Position numbers and translations under genes: made by a program
Notes under the pieces: generated by a model
Told to the model about the DNA's origin: nothing
Seen by the model: only the letters and a program-made list of their open reading frames with translations
The model's database searches: none
In this document: one piece after another, positions 3,052 to 35,851 of the stretch
How the letters are laid out: every line of letters begins with the position of its first letter
How positions within the stretch are numbered: the stretch's first letter is position 1
From: Actinomycetota bacterium
Lineage (GTDB): Bacteria > Actinomycetota > Geothermincolia > Fen-727 > Anoxymicrobiaceae
Length of the DNA: 64,000 bases
Assembly (NCBI GenBank): GCA_018831265.1
Contig: JAHJCO010000041.1
Location: 33,700 to 97,699, forward strand
Reading direction: 5' to 3'

Positions 3052-3168
3052 CGGGGACTTCAGTCCCGGGTGAGATGGCGGACTGAAGTCCGCCCCCAAG
3101 CCTCACTGATTGGGCCGGGACTTCAGTCCCGGTAAGCGCGTTCGACGGCGGACTGAAGTCCGCCCCCA
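3052..3168. repeat. array of 4 short hairpin units (GGGACTTCAGTCCCGG / GCGGACTGAAGTCCGCC, alternating orientation) with shared spacer CCTCACTG..GATTGGG
   Basis: Read directly from the sequence. The same composite element recurs at 23706-23887, downstream of a paralogous gene. Confidence 0.75.
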
Positions 3169-21030: not shown

Positions 21031-23712
21031 ATGAAGGCTGGAACAGTGGCGGTGGCGCGGATAGCGCTCCTCTTCGTCGTCCTGGCGGTGATGGGGACGG
21101 TGCCCGCGCGCGCGGCAGGCAGTACGGGCGGGGATGCGCAGACCTACTACGTGTCCCCGTCCGGCCTCGACTCCAATCCGGGGACGCTCGACAAGCCCTT
21201 CAAGACACCTGGTTACGCCTCAAAGCAGATCCAGGCGGGCGATACCCTCATCATCCAGGGCGGCCGGTACGTGCTCTCCACCTTCTACGACGACATGATC
21301 ACCCCCCCGACCGGGACCGCTACCGCGCCGATAATCATCAAGGGGGAGGAAGGAAACCGCCCCGTGCTCGCCGGGCGCGACAACCTCTTCTCGGCGGTGG
21401 ATATCGGGGGGACCAGCTACATAACCATCGAGAACCTGGAGATAACCTCCGACAACGGGGCGCTGTTCCGGGGAGGTATCGCCGGGTCGAGCGGGCCGGT
21501 CGATCACCTGACGCTGAAAGATCTCTATATCCACCATATAGACGAGGGAGCGATGGACTTCGCGGACCTCTCGGCCGCGATCATCCAGGGCTGCGTGATG
21601 TCGTACTGCGGGTTCGGCTGCCTGGGCGGGCCCGTGGGCCAGCAGGGGGGATGGCGCGACGTCACCGTGCGCGGCTGCACTCTCTCCTACTCGGGGCACT
21701 ACTACCAGGGCGGCCCGGGGCCGAGCCCCTACGACCGGCCGGACGGGTTCGGGGTCGAGCCCTCCGAGGGGCCCATTGAGATCGTGGACACGGTCGCCGA
21801 GCACAACAGGGGCGACGGGCTGGACTCCAAGTGCAGGAACACCCATATCCACGAGTGCGTGGTCGCGAACAACTCCTGCGACGGGGTGAAGCTCTGGGGC
21901 GACGGCAGCCGGGTCGAGAACACGCTCGTCTACGGCACGGGCGACGGAGTGGGCGGCGCCTCTCCCTGGGCGGGGCTGGTCATCGGCACCGAGCAGGAGG
22001 GCGCGGACTTCGAGATAGTGAACTGCGCCATTGCCGACAACCCCGAGCGGGAGGCGTACCCGATGTACGTCGAGTACGGGGGGGCGGCCAACATCAGCGT
22101 CCTGTTCCGCAACAACATCGTCGCCGACGGCTACGGGGCGCCGTACTTCGCGCCCGAGGCCGACCTCACGCTCGACCACTGCATCCTCTACAGCCCGGAC
22201 CACCCCGACAACTCGCTGGAGGCGAACGGGAAGACCTACAGCGCCGACGAGCTGGAGGCCGGGGCGGTCGGGGAGGGAGTCCTGTGCGACGACCCGAAGT
22301 TCCTGCAGCCTGCCTGGGGCTCGGCCGGTGATTACCACCTGGAGGCGGGAAGCCCGGCAATCGACTCCGGGTCGTCGGACGGCGCTCCGGCCATCGACCT
22401 GGACGGTGCGGCCCGACCGTTCGGCGCGGGGTACGACATCGGCCCCTACGAGTACGGGGCTTTGAGGCCGGTCACGGGAGAGAGGACCTGGGGGACCGGC
22501 GCTCCGGGGGTCACGCAGCCCGGGGTCACCTGGTACCTGGCCGAGGGCTGCACCGCCGGAGGGTTCGAGACCTGGGTCCTGGTGCAGAATCCGAATAGCA
22601 CGCCCGCAACCGTGGACATCACCTACATGACCGGGGAGGGGGAGAAGCCCGGGCCCCGCGTCACCCTCCCGCCGGACTCGAGGGCGACGGTGAACGCGGC
22701 CGACACGGTGGGACAGGCCTGGGAGGTCTCGGCGAAGGCGTCCTCCAACGTACCGGTGGTTGTGGAGCGCGCCATGTACTGGGGCGGCCGGACCGGGGCC
22801 CACGGCTCGACGGGGGTGAGCGGGCCGGCAACGGACTGGTACCTGGCCGAGGGCTGTACCGCCGGCGGCTTCGAGACCTGGGTGCTCCTGCAGAACCCCG
22901 GAAGCGTCGAAGCCAACGCACAGCTCACTTTCATGACGGATACCGGACAGGTAACGGGCCCTTTAGTGGTATTGCCCCCGGGCACGCGCCGGACGGTGAA
23001 CGTCGCGGAGACGGTGGGCGAGGCCTGGAACGTTTCCACCGGGGTTGACTCCGATGAGCCGGTCGTCGCCGAGCGGGCGATGTACTGGAACGGGCGCGCG
23101 GGCGGCCACGACTCGGTGGGGGTGACGGCGGCCTCGAAGACCTGGTACCTCGCCGAGGGCTCCACCGGGGGCACGTTCGAGACCTGGCTTCTGCTGCAGA
23201 ACCCGGGAGACGTGCAGGCAAACGCGCAGGTGACCTTCATGACGGACGCCGGGCCGGTCACCGGCCCTTCGGTGGGGTTGCCCCCGGGCACGCGCCGGAC
23301 GGTCAACGTCGCGGAGACGGTGGGGGCGCAGTGGAGCGTATCCACCGAGGTGTCGTCAGACCAGCAGGTCGTCGCGGAGCGGGCGGTCTACTGGGACGGG
23401 CGGCGTGAGGGCCACGACTCGGCCGGGGTAACCTCGCGAGGCAAGACCTGGTATGTAGCCGAGGGCTGCACGGGCCAGGGTTTTCAGACCTGGATACTGG
23501 TACAGAACCCGGGCACGCAGAACGCCACGGTGAGCCTGGAGTACATGACGGGTAGCCGACAGGTGACCGGTCCCACGCTCATCCTCGGCCCCCGGACTCG
23601 CCGCACGGTGAACGTCGCCGACACCTGCCCTGGCGAATGGAGCGTCTCCACGAAGGTCACCTCCAGCCACGACATCACCGTCGAACGCGCCGTGTACGGC
23701 GTATCCCCTTGA
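21031..23712 (+). CDS. secreted protein: right-handed parallel beta-helix (pectate-lyase/DUF1565-like) head + 4 tandem 'WYLAEG...QNP...ERAMY' modules
   Basis: Signal peptide; YYVSPSGLDSNPGTLDKPFKT... and NNSCDGVKL... coils indicate a beta-helix fold, followed by four clear module repeats. Confidence 0.8.
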   Translation: MKAGTVAVARIALLFVVLAVMGTVPARAAGSTGGDAQTYYVSPSGLDSNPGTLDKPFKTPGYASKQIQAGDTLIIQGGRYVLSTFYDDMITPPTGTATAPIIIKGEEGNRPVLAGRDNLFSAVDIGGTSYITIENLEITSDNGALFRGGIAGSSGPVDHLTLKDLYIHHIDEGAMDFADLSAAIIQGCVMSYCGFGCLGGPVGQQGGWRDVTVRGCTLSYSGHYYQGGPGPSPYDRPDGFGVEPSEGPIEIVDTVAEHNRGDGLDSKCRNTHIHECVVANNSCDGVKLWGDGSRVENTLVYGTGDGVGGASPWAGLVIGTEQEGADFEIVNCAIADNPEREAYPMYVEYGGAANISVLFRNNIVADGYGAPYFAPEADLTLDHCILYSPDHPDNSLEANGKTYSADELEAGAVGEGVLCDDPKFLQPAWGSAGDYHLEAGSPAIDSGSSDGAPAIDLDGAARPFGAGYDIGPYEYGALRPVTGERTWGTGAPGVTQPGVTWYLAEGCTAGGFETWVLVQNPNSTPATVDITYMTGEGEKPGPRVTLPPDSRATVNAADTVGQAWEVSAKASSNVPVVVERAMYWGGRTGAHGSTGVSGPATDWYLAEGCTAGGFETWVLLQNPGSVEANAQLTFMTDTGQVTGPLVVLPPGTRRTVNVAETVGEAWNVSTGVDSDEPVVAERAMYWNGRAGGHDSVGVTAASKTWYLAEGSTGGTFETWLLLQNPGDVQANAQVTFMTDAGPVTGPSVGLPPGTRRTVNVAETVGAQWSVSTEVSSDQQVVAERAVYWDGRREGHDSAGVTSRGKTWYVAEGCTGQGFQTWILVQNPGTQNATVSLEYMTGSRQVTGPTLILGPRTRRTVNVADTCPGEWSVSTKVTSSHDITVERAVYGVSP

Positions 23713-23887
23713 GCCCATGCTTGAGCCCGGGCTCTAAGCCCGGGATTCATTCGGGGATTGGGCGCGGACTTCAGTCCGCTGACGGATCGCCTACCGGGAC
23801 TGAAGTCCCGGCCCAACCTCACTGCTGATTGGGAGCGGACTTCAGTCCGCTGACGGATCGGGCTTGGGCGCGGACTTCAGTCCGCGA
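23706..23887. repeat. GAGCCCGGGCTCTAAGCCCGGG hairpin + 4 GGACTTCAGTCC/GGACTGAAGTCC units (same element as 3052-3168)
   Basis: Read directly. Shared spacer CCTCACTGCTGATTGGG. Confidence 0.75.
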
Positions 23888-23928
23888 ATAATGGTCCGAT
23901 TCGAACAGGACTTAATCCCTGGCTCGGA

Positions 23929-24855
23929 TCAGTCCCACGCCTCGGGCATCACGGTCGGCCTGCCGTCTCTAACCTCGTGGTACGGCTGGCGCATGCCTTT
24001 CTCCAGCCTCTCCAGGCTCTCGACCCGCTCCTGCACGCCTGCCATCGAGGGCGGCACGAACATCATCACAGGTCGTACTCTGAACGGCGTCACCCTTTTC
24101 TTTTTCACCAACCACGAGACCTGGACAATCGCCTCTATGAGCGCACGTGGGTTCCCGGTGACCCTAGCGGCCAGGGTATCGGCGAGGACCCCCGGACGAT
24201 TCATGTACTCGTTGGCACCGAGCGCGAACCTGTGCCTGATCTCGTCGGAGAGCACCGGACCCCCCTCCACGGAGCCGCGCCTCTGCAGGGGGACGGCCGG
24301 TTTGGGCATGAGGATCAGCCTGGCGAGGATCGCCGCCATCACCGCCTCGACCTGCTGGTCGGATAGGTCCTGCTCCAGGAGCGTCGGGGTCACCGCCAGG
24401 CCGCGGCCCCCGGGTAGCACGTACGCGTTGGGCGACGGCAGGTCCATCACCTCCATGGGCGGGGCCTGTATCCCAAGCCCGATGCAGACCGCGTCGAGTG
24501 CCTCCCTGAATACGTGGCACCTTCTCGTGTTGTATGCCCTGGCGCGCCGACGCCCCCTTGCCGTGAAGCGTGATGCGTTGAGCTGTCGCCGGAGCATTAC
24601 TGCCAGCGCGAATCCACCTGCCACAGCCAGCGCTATCCCCAGGATGAGCCGGGCAACCCCTGCGGCGGCAGAGGGTTGCGGACCGACACGACTAACCGAC
24701 CCGAATGTGGAGATGAGCATCAGGATGCCCGCGACGGAAAGTATGAGGCTGAAGATCACGAGGATGTACCGGGCTCCATCCTTCGCCGGGTCGGCCGCGG
24801 CCCCCCGTGGCAATGGCTCGGCGGGCGGACGAGACCCGGTCGGATGCTCAGTCAC
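23929..24855 (-). CDS. membrane protein, catalytically degenerate M48/HtpX-like peptidase homolog (HEXXH replaced)
   Basis: N-terminal TM helices. ...SPNAYVLPGGRGLAVTPTLLEQDLSDQQVEAVMAAILARL aligns with the M48 zinc-binding region PNAFA..G..AVAVTtGLL..L..dELeAVLAHELGH, but His/Glu/His become Ala/Ile/Arg. The C-terminus PPSMAGVQERVESLERL resembles the M48 C-terminal helix. Confidence 0.5.
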   Translation of the reverse strand: MTEHPTGSRPPAEPLPRGAAADPAKDGARYILVIFSLILSVAGILMLISTFGSVSRVGPQPSAAAGVARLILGIALAVAGGFALAVMLRRQLNASRFTARGRRRARAYNTRRCHVFREALDAVCIGLGIQAPPMEVMDLPSPNAYVLPGGRGLAVTPTLLEQDLSDQQVEAVMAAILARLILMPKPAVPLQRRGSVEGGPVLSDEIRHRFALGANEYMNRPGVLADTLAARVTGNPRALIEAIVQVSWLVKKKRVTPFRVRPVMMFVPPSMAGVQERVESLERLEKGMRQPYHEVRDGRPTVMPEAWD

Positions 24856-24859
24856 GCAG

Positions 24860-25519
24860 TCACTCCCAGTACTCGGGTGTCAGGGAAGGCTTGCCCTCCC
24901 TGACCTCGTGGTGAGGCTCACGCACGCCTCTCTCCAGTCGCTCCAGGTTCTCGATCCTCTCCCGGATGCCGGCAAGCGAGAATGGAACGAACATCATCGG
25001 CGGCGATAGTCCAAAGGGGATCGTAACCCTGTACTCGCCCAGGATCACCGAGATTCTATTGATCGCCGAAATCAAGGCAAGCGGCTGACTGGTGATTCTT
25101 GCCGCCAGGGTGTCGGCGACGATGTCGGTCCGCTCCGAGTAGGGCCAATCGTGAAGGTCGTACTTCTTCCTGACCTCCGTGGGTGTCATTGAGTCGCTGT
25201 CAGGTGAACCTCGCGGCCTCAGCGGGTTCTTCCTGTCGGCTTCGAGGACGATCTTAGCCACCCCATCAGCCATGACCGCTTCCACCTCCAGATGCGAAAG
25301 GTCCTGCATGAGGAGCAGGGGTGTCACGGCAAGGCCTGCTCCGCGAGGCATCACGAAAGAGTTTGGAGCCGCGAGGTCTGCGACTACGAGAGGCGGGGTC
25401 TCTATACCGACCCCGATGCTCACACCGTCTAGGGCATCCCTGAAGACGTGATATCGACTTCGATCATAATCATCCGAGGACCTCAGGAACCGCCTTCCAC
25501 CCGTAAGGATTCGTTTCAC
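24860..25519 (-). CDS. tandem paralog of 23929-24855 (degenerate M48-like, no N-terminal TM region)
   Basis: Clearly alignable to its neighbour (RYHVFRDALDGVSIGVGIETPP...MMFVPFSLAGIRERIENLERLERG). The active-site stretch reads LEVEAVMADGVAKI, with no HEXXH. Confidence 0.5.
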   Translation of the reverse strand: MKRILTGGRRFLRSSDDYDRSRYHVFRDALDGVSIGVGIETPPLVVADLAAPNSFVMPRGAGLAVTPLLLMQDLSHLEVEAVMADGVAKIVLEADRKNPLRPRGSPDSDSMTPTEVRKKYDLHDWPYSERTDIVADTLAARITSQPLALISAINRISVILGEYRVTIPFGLSPPMMFVPFSLAGIRERIENLERLERGVREPHHEVREGKPSLTPEYWE

Positions 25520-26523
25520 AAGATATCCCGGGCGGCTTCCAGGATGCGGGCGACGCTGGGGAGGGCCTCGTCCTCCAGGCGGCGGGCGTAGGGGATGGTG
25601 CCCTCGGTGCAGATCCGGGCGAAGCGGGCGTCCGTGCCTGACTCGGCGATTACGGCGGCGACCTCGCCAGAGAGGCCGAAAGCGCGGTAGTCCTCGTCAA
25701 CGACGACTACGCGGCGGCAGCGGCGCGCCGCCTCTGAGATCACGTCGGTGTCGAGCGGCCGGACGGAGCGCAGGTCTAGGACCGTGGACCGCACCCCTTC
25801 GGAGCCCAGGGCCGCGGCGGCCTCCAGGCAGCGGTGGACGCTCAGGCCGAGCGATATGAAGGCGATGTCGGAGCCGTTCCTGAGTGTCGCGGCCACGCCG
25901 AGTGGGACGGGCTGGACAGGCAGCGGGACGTCTCCATTGGCGCCGGCCGCCGGGACGTCGAACTCCACTCCTTCACGGTTTCCTATGCCCATGTAGTCGA
26001 GCCAGTAGTCGGCCAGCATCTTGTGCTCCAGGTAGACCACCGGACCATCTTCCTGAACTGCGGCGAGCATCAATCCTGCTGCATCCGCCGGGTTGGACGG
26101 CACGACCACGGAAAGCCCCGGGACACCCGCGAGCATCCTTCAGAGGCTCTGCTCGTGCTGTCCTCCGTCGCCGTACCCCGCGCCGCACGAGGAGCGCACC
26201 ACCATGGGGACCTTGAACCCGCCACCCGAGAACGTCTCTATCTTGGCCGCCTGGTTCAGCAGCGCGTCGAAGCACACCCCGATGAAGTCCACCAGCATTA
26301 TCTCGACGACCGGCCGCAGGCCCATCATCGCCGCGCCGACAGCGGTGCCCAGGAAGGCGGACTCGCTGATGGGGGTGTTTCGCACCCGCTTGCCGCCGAA
26401 CCGGACCAGCAGGTCGTTTCGCAGCAGTTCGACGTCCTCGCCGAATACGATGACCGTCTCGTCGGCCTCCATCGCGGCCGCGAGCCCGGCTGAGATCGCC
26501 TCGGCGAATGTCATTTCAGGCAT
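25516..26523 (-). pseudogene. 2-oxoacid (pyruvate/acetoin) dehydrogenase E1 component beta subunit, interrupted by one in-frame TGA (at 26140-26142)
   Basis: ORFs 26140..26523 (transketolase pyrimidine-binding part, ...GGQHEQSL*) and 25516..26136 (RMLAGVPGL..., transketolase C-terminal domain) share a frame. Together they give a normal ~334-aa E1 beta; the TGA falls where Glu is usual (QSL-E-A..PGLKVV). Confidence 0.7.
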
Positions 26524-27678: not shown

Positions 27679-27900
27679 CTACTGCGCCGCTCCCATCTCG
27701 CAGTAGAAGGAGTCTCCCAGGCTGAACTCGCTGTATATCGGACAGGTCGCGCATACACAGCTGACCTTCTCGAACTCACAGGTCGCCTTGCCCTTGGCAC
27801 AGAAGAACCCTTCCATCTTCTCCTTCATGCACTGGTTGTGGGTCGGACACGTCATGCAGATGCACTTCATCATGTTTTCCTGGGTGTCAGGTACGGGCAT
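27679..27900 (-). CDS. small cysteine-rich protein, DUF2769-like
   Basis: 73 aa with 12 Cys in the pattern MMKCICMTCP...C..E..FC..GK..C......C.CATCP...E....FYCE, which matches my recollection of DUF2769. Confidence 0.55.
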   Translation of the reverse strand: MPVPDTQENMMKCICMTCPTHNQCMKEKMEGFFCAKGKATCEFEKVSCVCATCPIYSEFSLGDSFYCEMGAAQ

Positions 27901-33511: not shown

Positions 33512-35851
33512 ATGCTCCGCAAAACGATAATTGCGCTGGGGGTGGCCGTTCTCTCGGTCGCCTTCGCGCCCATGGCACTCGCCTCGAGCGGCTGGACCGG
33601 GGGGCACGACGTGGTCGGGTGCACTCAGGCCGCCACCACCTGGTACTTCGCGGAGGGGACGACCCGCACCGGGTTCAACGAGTGGGTCTGCCTGTACAAC
33701 CCCGCGGACAACGATACCAGCGCGACCTTCACCTATATGCTCGAGGACGGCAGCACCGAAGTGAAGACGTACGAGCTGCGCGCCGCGAGCCGCACCACCG
33801 TGGATGTGAACCTCGAGCTGGGGCCCGGGCACGACGTTTCGATAAAGGTCGATTCGGCAGCCCCGGTGGTCGCCGAGCGTCCCATGTATTTCCGCTATAA
33901 CGGCATGTGGACCGGTGGTCACGACGTGGTGGGGACCAACGGACCCCTGCCGGAGTGGTTCTTCGCCGAGGGCACTTGCCGTCCGGGCTTCGATCCCTAC
34001 ATCTGCATCCAGAACCCGGGCTCTGGAGACGCCGCCGTGCTCGTCACCTACATGCTGGGCGACGGCACCACGCGCGAGGAGAACCTGACCGTCGGTGCGC
34101 ACAGCCGTTCGACGGTCGTCCCCAGGCAACTGCTGGGCGAGGGCGACGACGCCGCGCACGACTTCTCCGCGCACGTGGAGACGACCAACGGCGCGCTTAT
34201 CGTGGCCGAGCGCCCGATGTACTTCAACTACAAGGGCGGCTGGAGCGGCGGGCACGACGTGGTGGGCGCGACCGCCCCATCGACCGCGTTCCACTTCGCC
34301 GAGGGGACGTGCCGCCCCGGCTTCGATCCTTACCTCTGCATCCAGAACCCGAGCGACAAGACCTCCCGCCTCCGGATCACCTACATGCTGGGTAGCGGCG
34401 CTACCCAGGCCCAGTCCCTGGCCATCAGCCCCCACTCGCGGTCAACGGTCGTCGTCAAGCAGGTGCTGGGAGAGTTCGACGACCCGGCCCACGACTTCTC
34501 TGCCAGCGTGGAGACGACCGACGGGAGCAAGGTCATCGCCGAGCGGCCGATGTACTTCAATTACAAGGGGGCCTGGACGGGCGGGCACGACGTGGTCGGG
34601 GCTACCTCTCCCGCCCAGTCGTTCTCCTTCGCCGAGGGCACCTGCCGTCCAGGCTTCGACGCCTACCTGTGCATCCAGAACCCCGGGCCCGAGACCTCCG
34701 CCATCAATATCACGTACGTGCTGGGGGACGGGACCAGCCGGCAGCAGGCGCTCGACGTCGGCCCCAACAGCCGGGCGACCGTCTTCGTCAAGGACGTGCT
34801 GGGGGAGGGCAACGACCCGGCGCACGACTTCTCCGCCACCGTCGCCACGACCAACGGCACGGAGATAATCGCCGAGCGGCCCATCTACTACGACTACTAC
34901 AGCACCGCGAAATGGTCGATGGCCGTGCTCGGGGACGTGAACCTCGGTGGCGACGTGTCGCCGACTCTGGCCGCCAACGGCTTCGGGTACGTGTGGACCG
35001 GGGTCGGCCCGTATATCTCGGAGGCGACCCTGGGATTCGCGAACCTGGAGTGCACCATGTCATACCAGGGCTCGCCGGTCCCCGGGAAGACGTTCACCTT
35101 CGAGGGCGACCCAAACGCTCTGCCCGCGATGCGTGACGCAGGGGTTGACGTCGTTTCGCAGGCCAACAACCACGCCCGGGACTACGGGGCGGTGGCACTG
35201 CTGGACTGCCTGGGTTACCTGGACGGGTTCGGCATCGCTCACTGCGGCGCGGGGGCCGACTACGAGAGTGCACACGTCCCCGCGTACCTCGACGCCGAAG
35301 GACTGCGCGTGGCATTCCTGGCGTACGACGACATCGGTACCGCGGGATGGTACGCCGACGCCGGCTACCCGGGGGTCTGCGACGCGACCGATACGGGCAG
35401 GCTCATCGCCGACGTCCAGGCGGCGAGCCTCAACGCCGACTTCGTGGTGGTCTCCTTCCACTGGGGCAACGAGAAGGAGTACACCCCGACGGCGCGCCAG
35501 GCGAACCTCGCGCGGCTGTCAATTGACTGCGGCGCGGACATCGTGCTTGGCCATCACCCGCACGTGGTGCAGGGGATGGAGATATACAACGGCGGACTGA
35601 TCTGCTATTCGCTGGGCAACTTTGTGTTCAACCCTGGCAGCGACGCCGGGCACTACACGATACTGACCCGGATATCACTCGACTCGCGTGGGTTCCTGCA
35701 GGCCGAGTCGCACCCGGTCCACATAGACAGCTGCCGACCGACCATCATGGGGGGCGAGGCCGGGGCCGCCTGGATTAACCAGGTGGCGGCCATAGTGCAG
35801 GGGCTGGGGACACCCGCCCGGGTGCAGGACAACGTGATGTACGTACCGTGA
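33512..35851 (+). CDS. secreted protein: 4 tandem 'WYFAEG...QNP...ERPMY' modules + C-terminal CapA/PGA_cap-like metallophosphoesterase domain
   Basis: Signal peptide, then four ~110-aa modules, then LGNFVFNPGSD...HWGNEKEYTPT...VLGHHPHVVQG, typical of CapA-family domains. Confidence 0.85.
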   Translation: MLRKTIIALGVAVLSVAFAPMALASSGWTGGHDVVGCTQAATTWYFAEGTTRTGFNEWVCLYNPADNDTSATFTYMLEDGSTEVKTYELRAASRTTVDVNLELGPGHDVSIKVDSAAPVVAERPMYFRYNGMWTGGHDVVGTNGPLPEWFFAEGTCRPGFDPYICIQNPGSGDAAVLVTYMLGDGTTREENLTVGAHSRSTVVPRQLLGEGDDAAHDFSAHVETTNGALIVAERPMYFNYKGGWSGGHDVVGATAPSTAFHFAEGTCRPGFDPYLCIQNPSDKTSRLRITYMLGSGATQAQSLAISPHSRSTVVVKQVLGEFDDPAHDFSASVETTDGSKVIAERPMYFNYKGAWTGGHDVVGATSPAQSFSFAEGTCRPGFDAYLCIQNPGPETSAINITYVLGDGTSRQQALDVGPNSRATVFVKDVLGEGNDPAHDFSATVATTNGTEIIAERPIYYDYYSTAKWSMAVLGDVNLGGDVSPTLAANGFGYVWTGVGPYISEATLGFANLECTMSYQGSPVPGKTFTFEGDPNALPAMRDAGVDVVSQANNHARDYGAVALLDCLGYLDGFGIAHCGAGADYESAHVPAYLDAEGLRVAFLAYDDIGTAGWYADAGYPGVCDATDTGRLIADVQAASLNADFVVVSFHWGNEKEYTPTARQANLARLSIDCGADIVLGHHPHVVQGMEIYNGGLICYSLGNFVFNPGSDAGHYTILTRISLDSRGFLQAESHPVHIDSCRPTIMGGEAGAAWINQVAAIVQGLGTPARVQDNVMYVP

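Follow-up and report, generated by a model that had tools for sequence, protein, structure and literature searches.

A tandem pair of zinc-less HtpX-like proteins in an Actinomycetota genome as a candidate non-proteolytic module at the membrane face

We analyzed a 64-kb window of DNA (the whole stretch under study, 64,000 nucleotides [nt], positions 33,700 to 97,699 of contig JAHJCO010000041.1) from the Actinomycetota assembly GCA_018831265.1. On its minus strand lie two adjacent genes, here called A and B, whose products, judged from their alignments, are very probably pseudo-peptidases related to HtpX. HtpX (family M48B) is a zinc metalloprotease that is bound to the bacterial membrane and takes part in the quality control of membrane proteins, a process to which HtpX/M48 proteases are central. 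Because the zinc-binding and catalytic residues of the pair have been lost and yet the genes have been kept by selection, the role of the proteins is almost certainly a non-cutting one. Our best explanation of the whole, to which we give a probability of roughly 55%, is that the tandem zinc-less pair would serve as a non-proteolytic binding module at the face of the membrane.

Gene B (24860 to 25519, minus strand) is an open reading frame (ORF) for a soluble, zinc-less M48/HtpX-like protein of 219 amino acids (aa), and gene A (23929 to 24855, minus strand) encodes a membrane-anchored one of 308 aa. The two are paralogous, sharing 50% of 217 aligned residues (E value of 1e-70 in a pairwise comparison). 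Gene B, which has no transmembrane (TM) segment, is transcribed first, followed by the anchored gene A. The GTG start of gene B overlaps the stop codon of the gene for a 2-oxoacid dehydrogenase E1-beta subunit (GTGA), and that of gene A stands 4 nt past the gene B stop, with a Shine-Dalgarno-like GGGAG 7 nt upstream of the GTG. Position 25519 is the earliest possible start in the gene B frame, and the N-terminal 32 residues that this start gives are conserved in the gene B ortholog of another Actinomycetota metagenome-assembled genome (MAG), GCA_043807425.1 (locus L001). A longer, TM-containing gene B was considered and rejected, as the frame has no start codon upstream of 25519. In L001 (9339 to 9995), the gene B ortholog, V1748_01705, is publicly annotated as a protein of 187 aa, with its start called too late; there, too, the conserved frame starts at a GTG that overlaps the E1-beta stop codon. 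An antisense ORF of 381 aa (23864 to 25009, plus strand) was dismissed as an artifact of high GC content, because the conserved homologs, and the ratios of nonsynonymous to synonymous substitution rates (dN/dS) below 1, belong to the minus-strand frames.

The loss of the zinc site can be followed column by column. A motif search found no HEXXH (HE..H) anywhere in either protein. In gene A, the columns of both hmmalign and hhalign place A175-I176-L177-A178-R179 (24319 to 24333, minus strand) at the HEXXH position, with the first His replaced by Ala, the catalytic Glu by Ile, and the second His by Arg. In gene B, the aligned residues are D85-G86-V87-A88-K89 (25253 to 25267, minus strand), with Asp, Gly, and Lys at the same three columns. 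The column of the third zinc ligand, which holds Glu in canonical M48 proteins and Asp in the nearest relatives with an intact HEXXH, is occupied by Gly222 in gene A (24190 to 24192, minus strand) and by Asp132 in gene B (25124 to 25126, minus strand). Thus, gene A has lost all three zinc ligands; gene B keeps an acidic residue at the third-ligand column, and both of its His ligands are gone. The catalytic Glu is replaced in both. On these alignments, the pair is predicted no longer to bind zinc or to hydrolyze peptides. An earlier examination of the letters and ORFs of this stretch (the sequence-only reading) had proposed just such a tandem M48/HtpX-like pair with its zinc ligands and catalytic Glu replaced, and the motif search and profile comparison both bear it out. 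The motifs that it quoted are also present: SPNAYVL and APNSFVM, VEAVMA-AILAR and VEAVMA-DGVAK, AD.LAAR.T..P.AL, and MMFVP...ER.E.LERLE.G.

Curated hidden Markov model libraries were insufficient alone for the M48 assignment, which is why its weight is carried by a profile-profile comparison. The Pfam model for Peptidase_M48 (PF01435; cutoff, 20.3 bits) gave 18.0 bits on gene A, in a match that stops at residue 174, directly before the HEXXH-equivalent position, and gene B had no Pfam match at all. The best matches of both proteins were the HtpX equivalog models of NCBIfam, which were weak (E values of 5e-5 to 7e-3). Searches of PDB sequences with gene B and with the family profile came back empty, and word-indexed protein searches, which returned just 4, 1, and 2 relatives, badly under-reported the family. 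An exhaustive profile search, in which a six-sequence family alignment was run against 1.84 billion cluster representatives, brought up 646 proteins at E ≤ 1e-3, of which 119 reached E ≤ 1e-10. Many of the 646 retain an intact HEXXH; these we call live, as opposed to dead. Live relatives were reached at E values of 1e-27 to 1e-8, and they pass PF01435 with scores of 22 to 115 bits (115 for P0141, 91 for P0149, 47 for P0048, 31.5 for P0025, and 27 for P0112). When the family alignment was compared by hhalign with ten Pfam-validated M48 members (set A2), the probability was 99.4% and the E value was 3.9e-21 over 258 aligned columns. This alignment places VEAVMAAILARL on LEGVIAHELSHI, that is, AAILAR on AHELSH, and RPGVLAD on NREYLAD, the Glu of which is the third zinc ligand. 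By profile comparison, then, genes A and B are clearly homologous to M48 peptidases, with a similarity that is significant at the profile level and bridged by the live relatives that pass the Pfam model; the zinc ligands are lost in the aligned columns, and no HEXXH lies elsewhere in the sequences.

Structure models were made with AlphaFold2 (AF2). The model of gene A had a predicted local distance difference test score (pLDDT) of 68.8, and that of gene B had a pLDDT of 85.0 and a predicted template modeling score of 0.83. For both models, the top PDB neighbors found by Foldseek were ZMPSTE24, BepA, the Vibrio HtpX domain (3cqb), a Geobacter M48 protein (3c37), abylysin, selecase, and BlaR1, with weak E values of 0.03 to 0.5 (the best, 0.03 and 0.23, individually nonsignificant). 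The modeled structures are consistent with the M48 assignment and are not decisive by themselves.

To place the pair among its relatives, the top 150 representatives and the two window proteins were aligned to the family model and sorted by the state of their zinc sites. The 56 live (HExxH) members have a median length of 373 aa and two TM segments before and two after the motif (2+2); among the 41 of them that cover the third-ligand column, 36 have Asp there. The 66 fully dead members, which have none of the three motif residues, have a median length of 300 aa; in most, two TM segments precede the motif, in 42 of the 66 none follows it, and their third-ligand column is variable. There are also intermediates: 8 HxxxH members, which have lost the catalytic Glu; 11 HExxX members, which have lost the second His; and 5 of the form Hxxxx. 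The eight HxxxH members (P0038, P0040, P0041, P0063, P0068, P0108, P0111, and P0137) are HQxxH in seven cases and HHxxH in one, and they resemble natural forms of the laboratory E-to-Q substrate-trap mutation. As the top-150 sample is biased toward the dead query profile, the dead-to-live ratio is not a population estimate.

A simple neighbor-joining tree, based on p-distances among 101 well-covered members, put 42 of the 53 dead sequences into one purely dead clade. The two window proteins are sisters within it, alongside their orthologs, and the remaining dead and partial forms lie interspersed with live ones. This pattern implies that the loss of catalysis is old in the clade of the window and has recurred elsewhere. 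It also implies that the tandem duplication is recent, later than the loss of catalysis, and specific to the lineage. That dead copies are conserved across relatives, a point on which the sequence-only reading had looked to phylogeny, is borne out by the orthologous pair in GCA_043807425.1 and by the 42-member clade.

Within the dead clade, at 25 to 35% identity, specific motifs have been kept. The first His is replaced by Val, Asp, Ala, or Thr (Asp in 11 of 42 members), and the column of the catalytic Glu holds a hydrophobic residue or Gly. At the second-His column there is Lys in 26 members and Arg in 11, or 37 of 42 (88%). The third-ligand column is not conserved, and the column statistics of the clade revealed no new cluster of His, Cys, or Asp. 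Framework residues common to live M48 proteins (E170, A174, D226, P236, and R277 in the gene A numbering) are conserved in 84 to 100% of the clade.

The family is confined to rare uncultured lineages. Its clusters are all tiny (1 to 5 members) and come only from metagenomes, save for P0001 and P0002, which are NCBI proteins; the two named members belong to Actinomycetota MAGs. A genome scan with the family profile found matches in just two MAGs. At two further loci (L004, 5932 to 6772, and L023, 5881 to 6837), apparent frameshifts break up the dead gene, leaving two ORFs that adjoin or overlap each other; either the assemblies are in error or the genes are genuinely decaying in those lineages.

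Both genes of the window are under purifying selection. We calculated dN/dS between the pair and the orthologous pair of L001, to which gene A (ortholog P0001) is 83% and gene B 91% identical at the protein level. Over its whole length, gene A had a dN/dS of 0.38 and gene B one of 0.39, and three neighboring genes gave 0.12 to 0.23. In gene A, the membrane anchor is relaxed (dN/dS, 0.58; 68% identity), and the M48-like domain is constrained as much as the neighboring genes are (dN/dS, 0.21; 92% identity). These values, together with the conservation of motifs across the clade, argue strongly that the genes are not decaying pseudogenes.

Gene A has two predicted TM helices on the minus strand, at residues 29 to 52 (24700 to 24771; hydropathy scan and an AF2 helix at residues 23 to 53) and at residues 66 to 90 (24586 to 24660). 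The Arg-rich stretch that follows the second helix, with 8 Lys or Arg in 25 residues, indicates that the domain lies on the cytoplasmic side, like that of HtpX. Gene A does not have the second hydrophobic pair, which in its live relatives stands between HEXXH and the third ligand, and a hydropathy scan of gene B found no hydrophobic segment. The sequence-only reading was right that one copy is anchored and the other is not; its description of the anchored copy as the first does not fit the minus strand, on which gene A is the downstream gene.

Both proteins retain the motif of the M48 edge strand: SPNAYVL in gene A (24415 to 24435, minus strand; AF2 strand at residues 144 to 146) and APNSFVM in gene B (25349 to 25369, minus strand; AF2 strand at residues 54 to 56). 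From the alignment, SPNAYVL is the likely equivalent of the substrate-binding strand N105-A106-F107 of BepA. Those BepA residues touch the substrate directly and are needed both for proteolysis and for a protease-independent chaperone-like activity (PMC8423444). The proteins end in aligned tails, EVRDGRPTVMPEAWD in gene A (23932 to 23976, minus strand), which is family specific, and EVREGKPSLTPEYWE in gene B (24863 to 24907, minus strand). The pattern of this tail in the dead clade is DG.PV..P.GW[ED], of which Pro304 and Trp307 (gene A numbering) are invariant. The low pLDDT of the gene A tail suggests that it is probably flexible. What had been described earlier as a characteristic C-terminal region is therefore partly that of M48, since FV.P...R...L corresponds to the M48 helix HP...RI..L, and partly not, since the extreme tail, DG.P...PE.W[DE], belongs to this family and is absent from canonical HtpX.

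On the preferred explanation, the M48 fold would have been kept as a module that binds polypeptides independently of zinc on the cytoplasmic side of the membrane. The two TM helices of gene A would tether it with the domain inside the cell, as in HtpX, and the soluble gene B product, made from the same message in the same compartment, would probably pair with it. The Lys or Arg at the former zinc site probably compensates structurally by stabilizing the helix pair that the metal once bridged. The retained edge strand may offer binding by beta-augmentation, as when BepA acts in a chaperone-like way, and the flexible conserved tail could act as a docking peptide or might fill the groove of its own protein, in analogy to minigluzincin zymogens. 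The pair could hold, shield, or hand over client polypeptides; alternatively, it could modulate a live HtpX-type protease encoded elsewhere. For this binding or regulatory mechanism, as distinct from the identity of the proteins, our confidence falls somewhat short of even, and it should be read as a tentative proposal.

Comparison with known systems sets the pair apart from each of them. It shares with HtpX the two N-terminal TM helices and cytoplasm-facing domain of gene A, the (P)NA[FY] motif of the edge strand, the EAVxA and AD..A..T..P.AL helices, and the C-terminal R...L helix. Unlike HtpX, the pair has no HEXXH, no third-ligand Glu, and no second hydrophobic pair, gene B is unanchored, and there is an additional conserved C-terminal P..GW[DE] tail. 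The nearest active relatives are a divergent live HExxH...D subfamily (for example, P0025, P0048, P0052, and P0112; E values of 1e-27 to 1e-11), which has the same framework, in some members the same C-terminal tail, and the same kind of contigs. It differs in having HExxH, Asp at the third-ligand column (36 of 41), an H.D.LADS block, the 2+2 arrangement of TM segments, and a passing score with Pfam M48; compared with live members, the window-type proteins are shorter by about 70 aa. The minigluzincins (proabylysin, projannalysin, and selecase) are soluble, minimal forms of the M48/M56 catalytic fold and are structural neighbors of both models, but at about 105 aa they are smaller, and they keep HEXXH and are active or zymogenic, whereas the window proteins are zinc-less. 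Minigluzincin C-terminal tails sit in the active-site cleft, and the conserved tail of the window proteins may be analogous.

BepA offers a precedent for an M48 scaffold that handles clients without cleaving them, by way of the edge strand whose motif both window proteins keep (PMC8423444). BepA, however, is a periplasmic protein with a TPR domain, and its zinc site is intact, though plugged by a His. It can switch from proteolysis to assembly and back; the window proteins, to judge from their residues, would be unable to proteolyze. FtsHi1 to FtsHi5 (M41), alpha-MPP (M16), and the iRhoms are likewise proteins in which the active-site motif has been replaced and the fold kept to scaffold or regulate active family members, with TEVGV/WAAGR in place of HEXXH in FtsHi (PMC11266112), but they belong to other peptidase families and are mostly eukaryotic or organellar.

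Several points weigh against a zinc-less binding module as the explanation of the pair. The Pfam M48 model stays below its threshold for gene A and is silent for gene B; the ten M48 members used in the hhalign comparison, though independently Pfam validated, were picked among the family profile's own matches; and none of the Foldseek matches is significant individually. The sample of 150 representatives leans toward the dead query, and the neighbor-joining tree is crude. Gene B, at a dN/dS of about 0.39, is more relaxed than its neighbors. Genomic context is not conserved across the family, and a dead copy stands beside a live one at just 1 of about 12 distinct loci. Finally, a nonsense codon in the upstream E1-beta gene makes expression of the operon uncertain in this genome.

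The pair could instead be dedicated to a live HtpX-like paralog as its regulator or decoy, heteromerizing with it or competing for its substrates in the manner of iRhom-ADAM17 or FtsHi-FtsH. We consider this doubtful. It is favored by locus L002 (262 to 2357), where the gene directly upstream of a live paralog is a dead copy (P0003, VEAIMATMLARI); the live paralog, of 355 aa, has ALMAHELAHI, 2+2 TM segments, the same C-terminal region, and a Pfam M48 score of 27 bits. Live and dead members also occur in contigs of apparently one lineage with DUF5719-rich neighborhoods in common, and pseudo-metallopeptidases commonly regulate active cousins (PMC11266112). However, the 64-kb window contains neither a live family member nor the intact htpX for which the sequence-only reading had suggested looking, and the 21-kb orthologous locus L001 contains no live member; most loci have a single dead copy and no live neighbor; and the tandem arrays of L005 and L008, the latter consisting of two overlapping dead copies, are all dead. 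An accessory role in membrane signaling, in which the dead domain would sense for or modulate a histidine kinase, loosely like BlaR1/MecR1 or LiaF-type proteins, seems to us improbable. It would explain locus L005 (3983 to 9759, all on one strand), in which a dead gene, a HisKA_7TM/HisKA_3 kinase, two more dead genes, and a GerE-type response regulator follow one another, an array that may be a multicomponent signaling cassette with pseudo-peptidase accessories. BlaR1 is among the weak structural neighbors, and TetR regulators adjoin a dead copy in L004 and L014. Nevertheless, the three interleaved dead copies of L005 are one locus; in the window, no kinase or regulator adjoins the pair; neither protein matches PF05569 (M56, the BlaR1/MecR1 type) or has a sensor domain; and BlaR1/MecR1 proteins have an extracellular sensor domain and an intact HEXXH, the zinc site of which BlaR1 signaling requires. 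The pair may thus act as a holdase, as a decoy or regulator of a live HtpX-like protease, or as a kinase accessory, the last two being supported by one locus each. The roles put forward in the sequence-only reading (substrate trap, regulator of a real HtpX, or stress sensor) are likewise candidates.

The remaining explanations are that the genes have no function or that they still encode enzymes, and we give each very little credence. That they are decaying relics of an htpX duplication would agree with the disappearance of all the catalytic residues, with dN/dS values of 0.38 to 0.39 that are above those of the neighbors, with the nonsense mutation in the upstream E1-beta gene, and with the apparent frameshifts of the L004 and L023 relatives. 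But both frames are intact in two genomes; the start and ribosome-binding signals are intact; the domain of gene A has a dN/dS of 0.21; and a clade of 42 members keeps its motifs, including an invariant C-terminal Trp and the Lys or Arg at the second-His column. An enzyme with a metal or catalytic site rebuilt from other residues, such as Asp85 and Asp132 of gene B, would account for the Asp found in gene B at both the first-His and the third-ligand columns, for Asp at the first-His column in 11 of the 42 dead members, and for the invariance of E170 and D226. E170 and D226 are, however, equally conserved in live M48 proteins, which marks them as framework residues. At the catalytic-base column there is a hydrophobic residue or Gly; the third-ligand column shows neither conservation nor covariation with the first-His Asp; no new conserved His, Cys, or Ser has appeared; and the four columns of gene A hold Ala, Ile, Arg, and Gly.

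The M48 pseudo-peptidase clade appears to be undescribed, and no M48 pseudoenzyme is known to have been characterized; pseudo-peptidases in general are well known. Our literature searches found no study of a bacterial dead HtpX, and a 2024 review of pseudo-metallopeptidases gives no M48 example and never mentions M48, HtpX, or Ste24 (PMC11266112). The analysis defines a coherent dead clade of at least 42 cluster representatives, in addition to independent or partial losses (such as HQxxH and HExxR), with three diagnostics: Lys or Arg at the second His, loss of TM segments 3 and 4, and the P..GW tail. A bolder claim, which we regard as rather unlikely to hold as a whole, is that this is the first recognized prokaryotic M48 pseudo-peptidase family, an ancient zinc-less offshoot of HtpX. 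In it, Lys or Arg would replace the metal, the P..GW tail and edge strand would form a new peptide-recognition device, and the proteins would serve as a membrane-proximal holdase or quality-control regulator, possibly as an A-B heterodimer gating a live HtpX or FtsH-type protease. The clade is a natural experiment on a catalysis-free M48 scaffold and bears on the protease-independent roles of BepA and ZMPSTE24. Gene B, as its soluble and confidently modeled member (pLDDT, 85), should be easy to express. The results also flag misannotation, both in the late start given to the L001 gene B ortholog and in IMG, where two dead members are labeled "Zn-dependent protease with chaperone function." Because there is no link to a pathway and the lineages are rare and uncultured, the impact on biology is for now modest.

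In the window and in L001, the gene order is ABC transporter ATPase, ABC-2 permease, E1-alpha, E1-beta, B, A, and in both the pair is convergent with the gene for an 893-aa beta-helix/DUF5719 protein. This order was absent from every more distant locus examined, and a context that is not conserved gives no lead to any particular pathway. We rejected a functional link with the 2-oxoacid dehydrogenase because the arrangement is limited to the close relative L001, the other family loci have no E1 genes, and the E1-beta gene of the window is broken. Neither protein matches PADLOC or PHROG models, and a defense-system or phage origin was rejected accordingly.

Other family loci have other neighbors. 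In a Candidatus Anoxymicrobiaceae MAG and related contigs, these include genes for TetR, MMPL, and an acetyl-CoA hydrolase-GNAT fusion. In L006 and L023, an S-adenosylmethionine methyltransferase gene is directly downstream of the family member, and in L023 an SPFH protein is encoded nearby. Large, secreted-looking proteins with DUF5719 repeats occur near family members in five independent loci: the window (21031 to 23712, plus strand) and L001 (1905 to 4250, 11154 to 13835, and 14009 to 16288), L005 (9837 to 12924), L012 (4339 to 6837), and L016 (1143 to 2630). In them, DUF5719 is combined with beta-helix, PGA_cap, BNR, NosD/Big_6, or Peptidase_C39_2 domains. A literature text search found no paper that mentions DUF5719. 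A functional link of the pair to these surface proteins was rejected; because DUF5719 is abundant throughout these contigs (three such proteins in the 21 kb of L001), it is probably a mark of the lineage and not of function.

The hairpin-repeat element that the sequence-only reading had placed beside the pair, with the E1 genes on the other side, consists of units like repetitive extragenic palindromes (REPs), and E1-beta is indeed the gene on the opposite flank. The REP-like palindromic unit, GCGGACTGAAGTCCGC, has five copies in the window (at 3078, 3148, 23764, 23835, and 23870), where 0.13 would be expected by chance. Two of the copies are within 3078 to 3163, and the other three fill the 216-bp convergent gap (23713 to 23928) between gene A and the 893-aa beta-helix gene.

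The E1-beta gene (25516 to 26523, minus strand) is split by an in-frame TGA at 26140 to 26142 into pieces of 127 and 206 aa. The window reads CTC TGA AGG where L001 reads CTC TGG GGG, a difference of two adjacent G-to-A changes (W128 to stop and G129R), and the TGA is either a nonsense mutation or a sequencing error. Recoding of TGA was rejected, because TGA is the stop codon of both gene A and gene B and the L001 ortholog has TGG. Between the ABC-2 permease and E1-alpha genes lies an ORF for a 73-aa Cys-rich DUF2769 protein (27679 to 27900, minus strand; Pfam score, 52.5 bits). It overlaps a long upstream extension of the E1-alpha ORF, and E1-alpha therefore probably begins further downstream than that ORF does; in L001, its ortholog has 340 aa, versus 412 aa for the ORF in the window.

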